Origin: Candidatus Porisulfidus sp. TsSOB
Lineage (GTDB): Bacteria > Pseudomonadota > Gammaproteobacteria > Poriferisulfidales > Poriferisulfidaceae
Assembly (NCBI GenBank): GCA_002631715.1
Contig: MRSX01000004.1
Coordinates: forward strand, 19,864-83,863
DNA length: 64,000 nucleotides
Direction: 5' to 3'
Shown here: positions 25,870-29,213 of the stretch, in pieces
Layout of the letters: every line of letters starts with the position of its first letter
Numbering within the stretch: position 1 is the stretch's first letter
Translations under genes and position numbers: made by a program
The notes under the pieces: generated by a model
Told to the model about the DNA's origin: nothing
The model's database searches: none
What the model saw: only the letters and a program-made list of their open reading frames with translations

Positions 25870-25893
25870 ACGAATCCGCCGAGACGCCCGGAA

Positions 25894-27048
25894 TCACCCG
25901 GACGTCGAAATCACCTGTTCCGCGCAATCGGCCAGCTGGCGCATGCCGGCAGCCGGCCCTAGCCGCTCCTCGACTTTCTGCAGTCGTACGCGCATCTGAT
26001 CGAGTTGGATCGGGTCGTCCAGCCATGGCGTAAGGGTGGCCGCAACCCGCTGGGGCGTTGCATCGGTCTGAATCAGCTCGGTGACTAGGTCTTCGCCCGC
26101 GACGATGTTCGCGAGACAATATCGCTTGATGCGCACCAGCAGGCGTGCCAGCAGGTAGCTCAGGTTTGCCAAGCGATAGATCATGCAGAACGGGACGCGC
26201 ATCAGGGCCAACTGCAAAGTGACCGTGCCGGAGGCCGCTGCCGCCATGTCGCACACCTGCATGGCGTCGTAGACTGGTTCCTGCAGGCATTTCACTTCGG
26301 GCAGGTCGCCGAGCCACGGGGCGTAGTCGTTCGGGTTCAGCCCGGGCGGCATCACCAGCGCGAACTGCGGCCGGGCGGGATGATTCCTCAGTTCGCGCAC
26401 CGCCCCGGCGCAGACCGGCATCAGGTGGGCGAGTTCGCTGCGTCGGGAGCCGGGGAAGAGACCGATCACAGGGCGTTGCGCGTCCAGTCCCCAGCGCTCG
26501 CGGACGGCATCGGGCGGTCGTGTCGGACTTGTTTGTCCGCGCAGGGGGTGTCCGACGTAGGTGACGGGCACGCGATGTTTCTCGTAGAAATCCCGCTCGA
26601 ACGGAAAGACCACCGCCATGTGGTCGACACGGCGCCGGATGGCGTGCACCCGCCAGGCCCGCCAAGCCCAGATCTGTGGACTGATGTAGAACAGCACCGG
26701 CACGCCGTGCCGATGCGCGAACCGAGCGAGTCGCAAGTTGAATTCCGGATAGTCGATCAATACCAGAAGCTGGGGCTTCCGGGCCAGAACCTGCGCTTTG
26801 AGGGTCTTCAGTGCGCCGCGAATCTCCCGATAATGGCGCAAGACCTCCACCAGCCCGACGACGGCAAGCTCGGTGGAATCGACCACCAGTTCGATGCCGA
26901 CTTCGCGCGAGGCCTCGCCGCCCATGCCGGACCAGGTCCACTCGGGATGCCGGGTACGCAGTTCCTCGACCAGTTCCGCTGCATATCGGTCTCCGGAGGC
27001 TTCCCCGGAGACCAGCATCAGGTGGGGAGCCGTTTCAGGATTCGGCAC
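25894..27048 (-). CDS. lpxB: Lipid A disaccharide synthase (inverted relative to lpxA and rnhB)
   Basis: SGEASGD, LIDYPEFNLRLA, YISPQIWAWR, VGHPL, FPGSRRSE, ASGTVTL; GTG 27048 chosen. Confidence 0.96.
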   Translation of the reverse strand: MPNPETAPHLMLVSGEASGDRYAAELVEELRTRHPEWTWSGMGGEASREVGIELVVDSTELAVVGLVEVLRHYREIRGALKTLKAQVLARKPQLLVLIDYPEFNLRLARFAHRHGVPVLFYISPQIWAWRAWRVHAIRRRVDHMAVVFPFERDFYEKHRVPVTYVGHPLRGQTSPTRPPDAVRERWGLDAQRPVIGLFPGSRRSELAHLMPVCAGAVRELRNHPARPQFALVMPPGLNPNDYAPWLGDLPEVKCLQEPVYDAMQVCDMAAAASGTVTLQLALMRVPFCMIYRLANLSYLLARLLVRIKRYCLANIVAGEDLVTELIQTDATPQRVAATLTPWLDDPIQLDQMRVRLQKVEERLGPAAGMRQLADCAEQVISTSG

Positions 27049-28132
27049 GGGCGAGGCTGGCGCAGATTTGTTCGATCTGGGCGGGCGAAAGCTCCGGGAA
27101 CATCGGCAGCGACAGGCACTGGTCGCAGACCTGTTCGGCTGCCGGCAGCGAAACCCCGTTCGTCCATGGCGCGTAGGCTTCCTGCCGGTGCAGGGGGATC
27201 GGATAGTAGATCCGGCTCTCAATGCCGTCCTTGGCCAGTTGCTCCTGGAGGGCGTCACGTTGCGGGCTCAGCAGGGTGTATTGGTGCCAGACGTGGCCAT
27301 CTGCGTCCGCGGGAGGCTGGATTCCGTCCAGTTTCTGAAGCCTTTCGGTATAGCGGCCTGCGGCCCGCTGGCGTTTCTCGTTCCATTCGGCGACATGGGG
27401 GAGTTTGACGCGCAGAATGGCGGCCTGGAGTTCGTCGAGGCGGCTGTTCAGGCCCAGCGTTTCATGGTGGTAGGGCTGGCTGGAGCCGTGGTTGCGCAAG
27501 GCGCGCAGCCGGGCGGCGAGTTCGGGGTCTCCGGTCGCCACGGCACCGCCGTCGCCGCATCCGCCCAGGTTCTTGCTGGGAAAGAAGCTGAAGGAGGCGA
27601 TCTGCCCGAACGTGCCGGTCGCCTGGCCTGCGGTTCTCGCGCCAAAACTTTGTGCGCAATCCTCGACGATGGCGACATCCGGTCCGATTGCTTCCCGGAC
27701 GGCGGAAACATCGGCGGGTCGGCCGTACAGGTGCACGACCACGGCCGCGCGGGTGCGAGACGTAATCGCGTTTCGGCACGATTCGGGATCGACCAGAAAA
27801 GAGTCGGGGTCGATATCCACGAAAACTGGACGTGCACCGGTCAGGGCGACGGCCTCGGCGGGCGCGGCGAATGTGAAGGCCGGGACCAGGACCTCGTCGC
27901 CGGGCCCGATATCAAGTGCACGAAGAGACAGACACAGTGCGTCCGTGCCGGAAGCGCAACTGACCACGTGGCCGATGCCGAGCATCTCGCCGAGTTCTGT
28001 TTCCAGGGCTTCGACCTCCGGACCCAGCACGTACCGGCCGCTGCGCAGCACGCGCAGGGCAGCGGCCTCGACATCCTCCTGCAAAGCCGTGTATTGCGTG
28101 GTCAGGTCCAGGATGGGGATGGTGGGGCTCAT
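27035..28132 (-). CDS. gnnB: DegT/DnrJ aminotransferase, GnnB-like (UDP-3-keto-GlcNAc transaminase)
   Basis: ASGTDAL, VHLYG, EDCAQSFG, SFFPSKNLG (PLP Lys), NSRLDELQAA; coupled to lpxB and gnnA. Confidence 0.8.
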   Translation of the reverse strand: MSPTIPILDLTTQYTALQEDVEAAALRVLRSGRYVLGPEVEALETELGEMLGIGHVVSCASGTDALCLSLRALDIGPGDEVLVPAFTFAAPAEAVALTGARPVFVDIDPDSFLVDPESCRNAITSRTRAAVVVHLYGRPADVSAVREAIGPDVAIVEDCAQSFGARTAGQATGTFGQIASFSFFPSKNLGGCGDGGAVATGDPELAARLRALRNHGSSQPYHHETLGLNSRLDELQAAILRVKLPHVAEWNEKRQRAAGRYTERLQKLDGIQPPADADGHVWHQYTLLSPQRDALQEQLAKDGIESRIYYPIPLHRQEAYAPWTNGVSLPAAEQVCDQCLSLPMFPELSPAQIEQICASLARAES

Positions 28133-29076
28133 GAGGCGTCCGTCTCCCGCATCCGCTGGGTGACTTCCAGTGCGGTGCGCAAGGCGCGCAGGCCGTCTTC
28201 CCCCCGCACCATGGGTTCGGTGCCCTGCCGGATGCAGTCGATGAAGTGGTGGATCTCCTCGCGCAGCGAATCGGTCTCCTGGAAGGCCTCGGTCGTATGC
28301 TCGATGCGTTCCGAGGGCGGGGCATCGCCTTCGCGCAGGCAATAGCGGTCCAGTTCCCGCTTGTGCAGGTCGAGAGCGTAGCAGGAATGGTGCTGGAAGA
28401 CGCGCATCCGACGCTCGCTGCGGCGGCTCAGGCGGCTGGCGGTGACATTGGCGACGCAGCCGCCGGGGAACTCAAGCCGGGCATTGGCGATGTCCAGGGT
28501 GTCGCCGATTACGGCGGCGCCGCTGGCGCGGATTTCGTGGGGGTCCTCGCCGACCACGGTCAAAGCCAAGTCGATGTCGTGGATCATCAGGTCCAGGGTT
28601 ACGTCGATTTCGGCACCGCGCGGAGTCCAGGGCGCCAAGCGGTGAACTTCGATGAAACGGGGGGTCTCAAGCCCCTGCATCAGGGCGCAGAACGCCGAGT
28701 TGAACCGCTCCAGCAGGCCGACCTGAACGATGCGTTGCTTCTGGCGGGCGAGTTCGATCAGTTCGGTGGCTTCTTCGACCGAGGAGGTGAAAGGCTTCTC
28801 GACCAGCACGTGGCAGCCGGCTTCCAGGCAGGCCCGGGTGATCTCGTAATGTTTCGCGGTCGGTACGACGATGCTGACTGCATCCACCTGGTCGAGGATT
28901 TCGCGGTAATCGGTGAAGCCGGGGACGCCGAGTTCTTCGCAAGCGGCGGTAACGCGTTCGGAATCGGTGTCGACCACGCCGACCAGTTCGGAATCACCTA
29001 AGTCAGCGTATTTCTGCGCGTGAAACCGCCCCAGGTAACCGACCCCGATGACGGCGGTGCGAAGCGGGGAAGTCAC
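28129..29076 (-). CDS. gnnA: Gfo/Idh/MocA oxidoreductase, GnnA-like (UDP-GlcNAc 3-dehydrogenase)
   Basis: IGVGYLGRFHA, VEKP, ERFN, LDLMIHDID; first gene of a block ending in lpxB. Confidence 0.8.
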   Translation of the reverse strand: MTSPLRTAVIGVGYLGRFHAQKYADLGDSELVGVVDTDSERVTAACEELGVPGFTDYREILDQVDAVSIVVPTAKHYEITRACLEAGCHVLVEKPFTSSVEEATELIELARQKQRIVQVGLLERFNSAFCALMQGLETPRFIEVHRLAPWTPRGAEIDVTLDLMIHDIDLALTVVGEDPHEIRASGAAVIGDTLDIANARLEFPGGCVANVTASRLSRRSERRMRVFQHHSCYALDLHKRELDRYCLREGDAPPSERIEHTTEAFQETDSLREEIHHFIDCIRQGTEPMVRGEDGLRALRTALEVTQRMRETDAS

Positions 29077-29116
29077 GGGAGAAAAGGCGGTCTAACAGTG
29101 CGGCGCGGTTCCCGAA

Positions 29117-29166
29117 ATTATAGCCCGCGGGACTTTTCGAGGCACGGATCCAGGCTTGGGTACAAT
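29117..29166. promoter_or_regulatory. Divergent promoters for gnnA-gnnB-lpxB (-) and rnhB-dnaE (+)
   Basis: TATAAT on the minus strand at 29117-29122; TACAAT on the plus strand at 29161-29166; no convincing -35 seen. Confidence 0.45.
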
Positions 29167-29213
29167 GCAGTTGTACGCTCGATTTTGCTGTCTGACCTTT
29201 CCTGACCCTGCCG

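Follow-up and report, generated by a model that had tools for sequence, protein, structure and literature searches.

The window, a 64,000-nucleotide stretch of the Candidatus Porisulfidus sp. TsSOB genome, carries the plus-strand gene run bamA-skp-lpxD-fabZ-lpxA. Its last gene, lpxA (25087-25869, TTG start), matches the Pfam families Hexapep and Acetyltransf_11 and scores 362 bits against NCBIfam model NF003657 (cut-off 226 bits). Three minus-strand genes follow: lpxB, encoding lipid A disaccharide synthase (25894-27018); a gnnB-like gene for a DegT-family PLP sugar aminotransferase (27035-28132); and a gnnA-like gene with a GTG start for a NAD-dependent UDP-GlcNAc 3-dehydrogenase of the GFO/IDH/MocA type (28129-29076). 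Read in their own direction, gnnA is the first and lpxB the third gene of a predicted operon. The plus strand then resumes with rnhB (29214-29828; Pfam RNase_HII; NF000595, 224.6 bits, cut-off 167 bits), which opens an rnhB-dnaE-accA-tilS run.

The three minus-strand genes, which lie on the lagging strand, are tightly packed: the gnnB ATG overlaps the gnnA stop codon by 4 nt (ATGA), and 16 nt separate the gnnB stop from the lpxB ATG. At the left junction, the stop codons of lpxA (25867-25869) and lpxB (25894-25896) face each other across a convergent gap of 24 bp (25870-25893), which is empty here and occupied in many congeners. At the right junction, the gnnA and rnhB start codons are separated by a divergent spacer of 137 bp (29077-29213). 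The first-pass annotation had described a block running opposite to both lpxA and rnhB, with 24 bp between the lpxA and lpxB stops, and had noted that one flip would give lpxA-gnnA-gnnB-lpxB-rnhB. The gene calls and the sequence bear out the strands and the distance, and a single flip does give that order, which exists in real genomes such as that of Limnohabitans.

The flanking genes keep the plus-strand order of the E. coli-type cluster bamA-skp-lpxD-fabZ-lpxA-lpxB-rnhB-dnaE-accA, here continued to tilS. In contrast to the one-strand E. coli-type arrangement lpxD-fabZ-lpxA-lpxB-rnhB-dnaE, lpxB shares the minus strand with gnnA-gnnB and is convergent with the plus-strand gene lpxA, and rnhB, likewise on the plus strand, opens a new unit. 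To our knowledge, E. coli has no gnnAB. Limnohabitans sp. T6-20 and Geobacter sp. UBA4057 share the gene set of the window and its internal order gnnA, gnnB, lpxB, but in both all genes lie on one strand (lpxA>gnnA>gnnB>lpxB>rnhB>), whereas the block in the window is reversed. The full collinear order bamA-skp-lpxD-fabZ-lpxA-gnnA-gnnB-lpxB-rnhB is found in Limnohabitans, and lpxA-gnnA-gnnB-lpxB in Geobacter, Syntrophales and Nitrospirota. In the window, lpxB is assigned to the amination operon and not to the lpxD-fabZ-lpxA unit.

Enzyme identities and predicted lipid A chemistry

GnnA matches PF01408 (122 bits), PF22725 and PF02894, with the Rossmann NAD-binding and GFO/IDH/MocA C-terminal domains together extending over its full length, and its GxGxxG motif reads IGVGYLG (residues 10-16). 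Its best solved relative is 7bvj/7bvk, aligned over the full length with E = 1.7e-63; the next match stands at 1e-25. The depositors name these entries only 'Oxidoreductase, NAD-binding'; we take them to be A. ferrooxidans GnnA. GnnA passed none of the curated equivalog models, the only related one being the archaeal NF040723 (198 bits, cut-off 450), and no bacterial GnnA model was among the NCBIfam matches. GnnB shows the DegT fold over its full length (Pfam DegT_DnrJ_EryC1, PF01041, 380.6 bits), and among its nearest solved relatives are the aminotransferases WbpE (E = 2e-88) and QdtB (6e-85). It passed no curated model above cut-off, and we therefore infer its substrate specificity from gene context. 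LpxB (Pfam LpxB, 271 bits) passes the curated equivalog TIGR00215 with 251.5 bits (cut-off 190.25 bits) and is encoded by the sole lpxB gene of this genome. The genes gnnA and gnnB adjoin each other and lpxB, as expected of the GnnA/GnnB pathway, and do so in relatives as well.

Homology and gene context point to the following chemistry. GnnA would oxidize UDP-GlcNAc at C3, and GnnB would complete the conversion by transamination, yielding UDP-GlcNAc3N. This nucleotide sugar would serve as the substrate of LpxA, with LpxB then linking both halves of lipid A. Because LpxA would receive an amino sugar, the primary acyl chains would be amide-linked. The locus thus predicts lipid A of the GlcN3N type, with amide-linked chains, in an abundant group of sponge symbionts.

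In A. ferrooxidans, the gnnA/gnnB pair presumably sits between lpxA and lpxB. The window differs in that gnnA/gnnB and lpxB run opposite to lpxA and rnhB. As here, the A. ferrooxidans enzymes are a NAD-dependent GFO/IDH/MocA oxidoreductase and a DegT-family transaminase encoded beside lpx genes; according to two later articles (PMC8036547, PMC5644692) that cite Sweet, Ribeiro and Raetz (2004, J Biol Chem 279:25400), they produce UDP-GlcNAc3N and give rise to amide-linked lipid A. Campylobacter jejuni, of a different phylum-level lineage, carries gnnA/gnnB of the same pathway. PMC8036547 reports that their inactivation raises TLR4 activation and antimicrobial-peptide sensitivity, and that amide-linked lipid A chemistry lowers innate immune recognition in other host-associated bacteria. 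By analogy, the C. jejuni phenotype points to a possible reason for the retention of gnnA/gnnB in a host-associated bacterium.

Candidate promoters in the divergent spacer

Because the block lies on the strand opposite to both flanks, it must form a separate transcription unit, and since it is divergent from rnhB, its transcription has to begin in the 137-bp spacer. As judged from sequence, gnnA-gnnB-lpxB almost certainly has its own promoter. The first-pass annotation had placed two -10-like hexamers at this junction, and both are where it put them: TATAAT on the minus strand (29117-29122, plus-strand ATTATA), some 40 nt upstream of the GTG start codon of gnnA, and TACAAT on the plus strand (29161-29166), 47 nt upstream of the ATG of rnhB and within the motif GGTAMAATGC (M = A or C). 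The two hexamers are 38 bp apart. When the spacer was shuffled, a divergent TAnAAT pair arose in only 0.2% of cases (P = 0.002).

Both hexamers are also conserved across the genus. All 13 congeners tested carry the TAnAAT pair, including those with spacers of 70-76% G+C; over the 26 G+C-rich spacers tested, 0.33 loci were expected to carry both. The motif GGTAMAATGC is kept at a fixed distance to the rnhB ATG in 15 of 15 aligned genus sequences, in which the rest of the spacer is unalignable. This conservation supports back-to-back divergent promoters, and the most likely arrangement would be two -10-dominated sigma-70 promoters in the spacer, with TATAAT driving gnnA-gnnB-lpxB leftward and TACAAT driving rnhB-dnaE rightward. 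The identity and order of the genes and the conservation of order and hexamers are observed directly, and promoter function and co-transcription of the operon are inferred. Retained genus-wide in a fast-evolving, G+C-rich spacer, the two -10 boxes illustrate neatly, on a small scale, how divergent promoters of uncultured bacteria can be footprinted phylogenetically.

A scan for the sigma-70 consensus over 25000-30000 returned no sites with at least 9/12 matches, because the -35 boxes are weak: no hexamer resembling TTGACA lies 16-18 nt from either -10 box, and the best candidates on a by-eye reading, GTGCCT and TCGAGG, match at 3/6 positions. Folding of the spacer gave no structure better than shuffles. 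The single metatranscriptome run containing the locus provided unstranded Logan contigs. One of these, at 27990-28359, is identical to the window and covers the gnnA/gnnB junction; another, at 29036-29317 (~95% identical), crosses the spacer and with it the interval that separates the two proposed transcription starts. Depth in this run is flat, at 1-6, and equal over all genes, including bamA, dnaE and tilS. The run therefore resembles DNA carry-over, and with unstranded contigs at flat, low depth, transcript starts, ends and strand are not readable from it.

These data bear on the alternative that the hexamers are not promoters, with the gnnA operon driven from elsewhere, such as the rnhB 5' end, or under the control of an alternative sigma factor, and GGTAMAATGC binding something else. 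The weak -35 boxes and the empty consensus scan fit this alternative, as does the loss of the exact hexamers outside the genus. The contig that traverses the entire spacer would likewise not be expected of two hexamer promoters acting alone, but the RNA run that supplied it is indistinguishable from DNA carry-over. Against the alternative, TATAAT is a perfect (6/6) and TACAAT a 5/6 -10 match, both correctly oriented and 40-47 nt upstream of start codons, and both persist in spacers of 70-76% G+C. We consider it unlikely that the hexamers serve another purpose.

Distribution, age and origin of the layout

The first-pass annotation named orientation in relatives as a check on the layout. The inverted order is present in 14 of the 15 other species of the genus, several with closed chromosomes (the fifteenth is represented by a 5-kb contig), and in 30 of 35 relatives within the order, where it extends to three further families besides the genus. 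In a class-wide sample of 80 gnnA-bearing genomes, 32 have gnnA divergent from rnhB and 8 have it collinear with lpxA, and the inverted layout is the commonest state among the gnnA-bearing Gammaproteobacteria sampled. The gamma proteobacterium HTCC5015, a Ca. Oxydemutatoraceae MAG and members of many other families show the arrangement rnhB< gnnA> (gnnB>) lpxB> lpxA<, as here. In the other inverted Gammaproteobacteria, the divergent spacer has a median of 158 bp, and in 5 of 18 loci the convergent gap is tight, at 14-63 bp. Compared with these loci, the conservation of the -10 hexamers and the hotspot for insertions into the gap (see below) are features of the genus Ca. Porisulfidus, the other differences being details of sequence.

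That the assembler flipped the 3.3-kb block, the true order being the collinear lpxA-gnnA-gnnB-lpxB-rnhB, is hardly conceivable. The source is a 21-contig metagenome-type assembly, and two public runs yield Logan contigs that span both junctions (25077-28562 and 28999-29877 in one run, 28898-29618 in the other); the runs that cover the locus best may come from the same sample and are therefore not independent support. Nevertheless, no strand-changing joint is listed among the junction-crossing contigs, a search of the two junctions for inverted repeats, which could mislead an assembler or mark an inversion, found none, and the identical order stands in nine congeners with single closed chromosomes and in the 30 of 35 order relatives. 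We regard a misassembly, which the first-pass annotation had raised as a way its reading could fail, as ruled out by the closed congener genomes together with the junction-crossing contigs.

Two other histories could have produced the order. A recent, lineage-specific inversion giving the symbiont its own peculiar regulation would explain why the block is reversed relative to E. coli and to collinear gnnAB genomes. We consider this very improbable, as the layout occurs in the whole genus, in three more families of the order and in 32 of the 80 gnnA-bearing families of the class, and as plus-strand GC skew is positive within the block just as it is on either side, indicating a composition equilibrated to the present orientation. 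Alternatively, an independent gnnA-gnnB-lpxB module, complete with promoter, might have landed in reverse between lpxA and rnhB, with loss of the resident lpxB. In Methylomonadaceae (including Methylomicrobium sp. wino1, Methylomonas fluvii and Methylobacter psychrophilus) the module is detached from lpxA and rnhB, and an Ectothiorhodospiraceae MAG carries an extra, reversed lpxA'-gnnA-gnnB between dnaE and rnhB while its lpxB is collinear. On a tree of GnnA sequences, like layouts cluster, yet the layout label requires at least 8 changes, which would also suit repeated insertion; with 43 of 111 branches open, however, the tree is poorly resolved and neither shows nor excludes a single origin. 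A single inversion, moreover, accounts exactly for the order, the genome has one lpxB only, and the block matches its flanks in G+C content. We therefore find replacement by an inserted module improbable, at about the level of the hexamers having another function.

We favor a joint reading, to which we assign a probability of about 0.8: gnnA-gnnB-lpxB is a compact operon in an ancient, fixed opposite-strand state, transcribed from the divergent spacer, likely through back-to-back promoters. The opposite-strand state would have been inherited from a deep gammaproteobacterial ancestor and not have arisen by recent inversion. Of the first-pass interpretation, the opposite strand, the order after a flip, the separate unit and the conserved hexamers stand, but the layout is not peculiar to this genome. 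The locus is a known gene set and pathway in a widespread, ancient layout found in dozens of gammaproteobacterial families. As the layout is old and common to many Gammaproteobacteria, the finding is real but ordinary, and an inversion of gnnA-gnnB-lpxB in this class is no longer worth flagging as unusual.

The convergent lpxA/lpxB gap and possible shared control

The 3' end of the lpxB transcript can form a 10-bp G+C-rich hairpin (25883-25906, minus strand) whose loop contains the UGA stop codon of lpxB. An intrinsic terminator would combine a G+C-rich hairpin with a U-tract, and no U-tract follows here. The fold of the 81-nt hairpin stretch is not significant against shuffles (z = -1.06), and the hairpin is kept in two congeners (L046 and L051) and degraded in other congeners. 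A terminator scan gave no match at the gap; its terminator-like matches occurred at chance level, with none at the junctions. Since the hairpin lacks a U-tract and folds no better than shuffles, the earlier observation of no obvious terminator between lpxA and lpxB holds.

Separate regulation of the block and convergent antisense overlap, both proposed in the first-pass annotation, are possibilities. Because the -10 boxes are only 38 bp apart, their upstream regions overlap. A more far-reaching reading joins the two junctions: the spacer would be one bidirectional control region that couples or opposes gnnA-gnnB-lpxB and rnhB-dnaE-accA through RNA polymerase competition or supercoiling, and the terminator-less convergence of lpxA and lpxB over 24 bp would produce mutual antisense interference, which with a second LpxA paralog could set the amide-to-ester ratio of lipid A in a host-associated bacterium. 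If true, the control region would tie lipid A amination and disaccharide synthesis to replication and fatty-acid genes. We consider this reading unlikely, slightly more so than either an inserted module or hexamers with another function. A second LpxA paralog is present.

In the congeners, the lpxA/lpxB gap is an insertion hotspot for toxin-antitoxin and defence genes: where lpxA still abuts lpxB, 8 of 11 congeners carry inserts of 0.2-2.8 kb in the gap.

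Anatomy and gene content of the block

Using an ORF listing and profile searches of the window (G+C content ~63%), we identified a plus-strand bamA-skp-lpxD-fabZ-lpxA run that ends at 25869 with lpxA (25087-25869, TTG start). Next come the minus-strand genes lpxB (27018-25894), gnnB (28132-27035; DegT family) and gnnA (29076-28129, GTG start; GFO/IDH/MocA fold), and then plus-strand rnhB (29214-29828), which opens an rnhB-dnaE-accA-tilS run. The three-gene block is therefore opposite in strand to both lpxA and rnhB, as the first-pass annotation had described. The gnnA stop codon overlaps the gnnB start in an ATGA, and 16 nt separate the gnnB stop from the lpxB start; judged from these distances, the anatomy is that of one operon.

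In the NCBIfam profile search, LpxA, LpxB and RNase HII score above the curated cut-offs. Neither GnnA nor GnnB passed a curated equivalog model, so both are named by homology and by the gnnA-gnnB-lpxB context, which is conserved. By far the best solved relative of GnnA is 7bvj/7bvk, which we take to be the A. ferrooxidans GnnA structure (full length, E = 1.7e-63; next match 1e-25), and the aminotransferases WbpE and QdtB are among the nearest solved relatives of GnnB.

Gene order in relatives and across Gammaproteobacteria

A misassembled block is ruled out by contigs that cross its junctions, together with the same layout in relatives. Logan contigs of two public runs span the two ends: one (X2) covers 25077-28562 with five differences and 28999-29877 with one, and the other (X1) spans 28898-29618. 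No strand-changing joint is listed at the junctions among the Logan contigs of public runs. Because the source sample may be among these runs, the comparative argument is the stronger of the two. We fetched ~15 kb around gnnB from 35 relatives within the order, nine of them congeners with single-contig chromosomes, and mapped twelve genes in each by tblastn. The divergent gnnA/rnhB layout is present in 30 of the 35, across four families, and in 14 of 15 congeners, the fifteenth being a 5-kb contig; records of the genus derive from sponge metagenomes. In three divergent congeners (L056, L057 and L058), lpxA lies 80 kb to >1 Mb from lpxB while the rnhB/gnnA junction is retained, indicating that the block's two junctions evolve independently.

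We next surveyed 200 genomes drawn evenly from the class. With the window's genome and one congener included, 82 of 201 genomes encode a GnnA-like protein (E <= 1e-45). Among the remaining 80, rnhB is divergent from gnnA in 32, lpxA and gnnA are collinear in 8, gnnA lies elsewhere in 37, and a contig end intervenes in 3. The inverted layout thus outnumbers the collinear one about fourfold. Of the 32 divergent genomes, 26 have lpxB next in line on the gnnA strand, and lpxA is convergent with lpxB in 18 loci overall. The inverted layout is the commonest among gnnA-bearing Gammaproteobacteria and no peculiarity of the TsSOB genome, and the block is an ordinary further case of a known system. The first-pass interpretation stands in outline (an opposite-strand transcription unit with plausible conserved promoters); what it drew from the layout about regulation is speculation.

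The order obtained by flipping the block does exist on one strand in other genomes. Limnohabitans sp. T6-20 carries bamA-skp-lpxD-fabZ-lpxA-gnnA-gnnB-lpxB-rnhB, and Geobacter, Syntrophales and Nitrospirota MAGs carry lpxA-gnnA-gnnB-lpxB, whereas the window's block is reversed relative to both; Methylococcus-type MAGs also have the collinear lpxA-gnnA-gnnB-lpxB. Methylomonadaceae (L249, L269, L271 and others) have gnnA-gnnB-lpxB alone, with no lpxA or rnhB within 4 kb upstream. In an Ectothiorhodospiraceae MAG (JAFIFU010000002.1), lpxA-lpxB-rnhB is collinear, and an extra lpxA'-gnnA-gnnB unit lies reversed between rnhB and dnaE. Plus-strand GC skew is positive throughout the window, in the block as in its flanks, and no inverted repeats were found at the block junctions, which fits an old event. 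On a GnnA tree the layout label is clustered and needs at least eight changes, at a resolution too weak for counting events.

The divergent spacer and its candidate promoters

Because the block is opposite in strand to both flanks, it must have a separate promoter, either inside the 137-bp gnnA/rnhB spacer (29077-29213) or further upstream. Both -10-like hexamers that had been noted are present: TATAAT on the minus strand facing gnnA (29122-29117), and TACAAT on the plus strand facing rnhB (29161-29166). Aligning spacers from 15 members of the genus revealed two conserved islands. The rnhB-ward hexamer lies within GGTAMAATGC (M = A or C), which is kept in 15/15 spacers, even in four species whose spacers are otherwise unalignable, at a constant distance from the rnhB ATG; a gnnA-ward TATAAT-type hexamer occurs throughout. 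Both TAnAAT hexamers are found in 13/13 congeners tested, even at 70-76% spacer G+C, and in 26 G+C-rich spacers we observed both at 13 loci versus 0.33 expected from shuffles. A divergent TAnAAT pair arises in 0.2% of shuffles of the window's spacer, and TATAAT occurs at only 0.1 per kb genome-wide. A consensus scan found no full sigma-70 site, the -35 candidates match at 3/6 positions, and beyond the genus the hexamers are not conserved in exact form. Overall, conservation of the two motifs points, with a probability of roughly two in three, to two back-to-back, -10-dominated candidate promoters 38 bp apart.

The locus is represented in a single metatranscriptome run (X4), whose contigs are unstranded. 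Of these, one matches the window exactly and bridges the gnnA/gnnB junction; another (29036-29317, ~95% identical) covers the entire spacer, including the stretch between the proposed starts. Depth is flat at 1-6 and the same over bamA, dnaE and tilS, making RNA indistinguishable from DNA carry-over, which the spacer contig probably represents.

Between the hexamers, immediately upstream of the one facing gnnA, lies an 8-bp G+C palindrome, CCCGCGGG (29124-29131). It recurs in 10 of the 15 spacers aligned and may mark a binding site or have arisen by chance. No Shine-Dalgarno sequence is recognisable upstream of gnnA (29077-29100) or rnhB (29200-29213).

The convergent lpxA/lpxB end and a second LpxA

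Only 24 bp (25870-25893) separate the lpxA and lpxB stop codons, and the earlier description of this gap as having no obvious terminator is fair. The lpxB transcript can form a 10-bp G+C-rich hairpin (25883-25906) with the stop codon in its loop, retained in the closest relatives only, and no U-tract follows it. The gap folds no better than shuffles (z = -1.06), and a terminator scan gave no match there. Read-through and antisense overlap are possible at this end.

The gap is also an insertion hotspot in the genus: 8 of 11 congeners in which lpxA still adjoins lpxB carry a 0.2-2.8 kb insert, seven with ORFs and the eighth a 220-bp AT-rich remnant. Cargo includes Gp49/HigB-like toxin and HTH antitoxin pairs, Phd/YefM and PIN pairs (VapBC-like), a D12 N6-adenine methyltransferase and a GmrSD restriction nuclease. 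The site is empty in the window and in two relatives (L046, L055).

A second LpxA paralog of 262 amino acids (Hexapep and Acetyltransf_11; ~40% identity to the operon LpxA) is encoded on another contig of the same genome (C16:7554-8339; plus strand, 4055-4843, of fetched locus L321), flanked by ligA and yaaA. The paralog occurs in 16/16 genus genomes and in families f2 and f4, and not in f3 (three of the order's four families). With two LpxA proteins and GnnAB, each sugar nucleotide might have its own acyltransferase, and the backbone might mix GlcN and GlcN3N.
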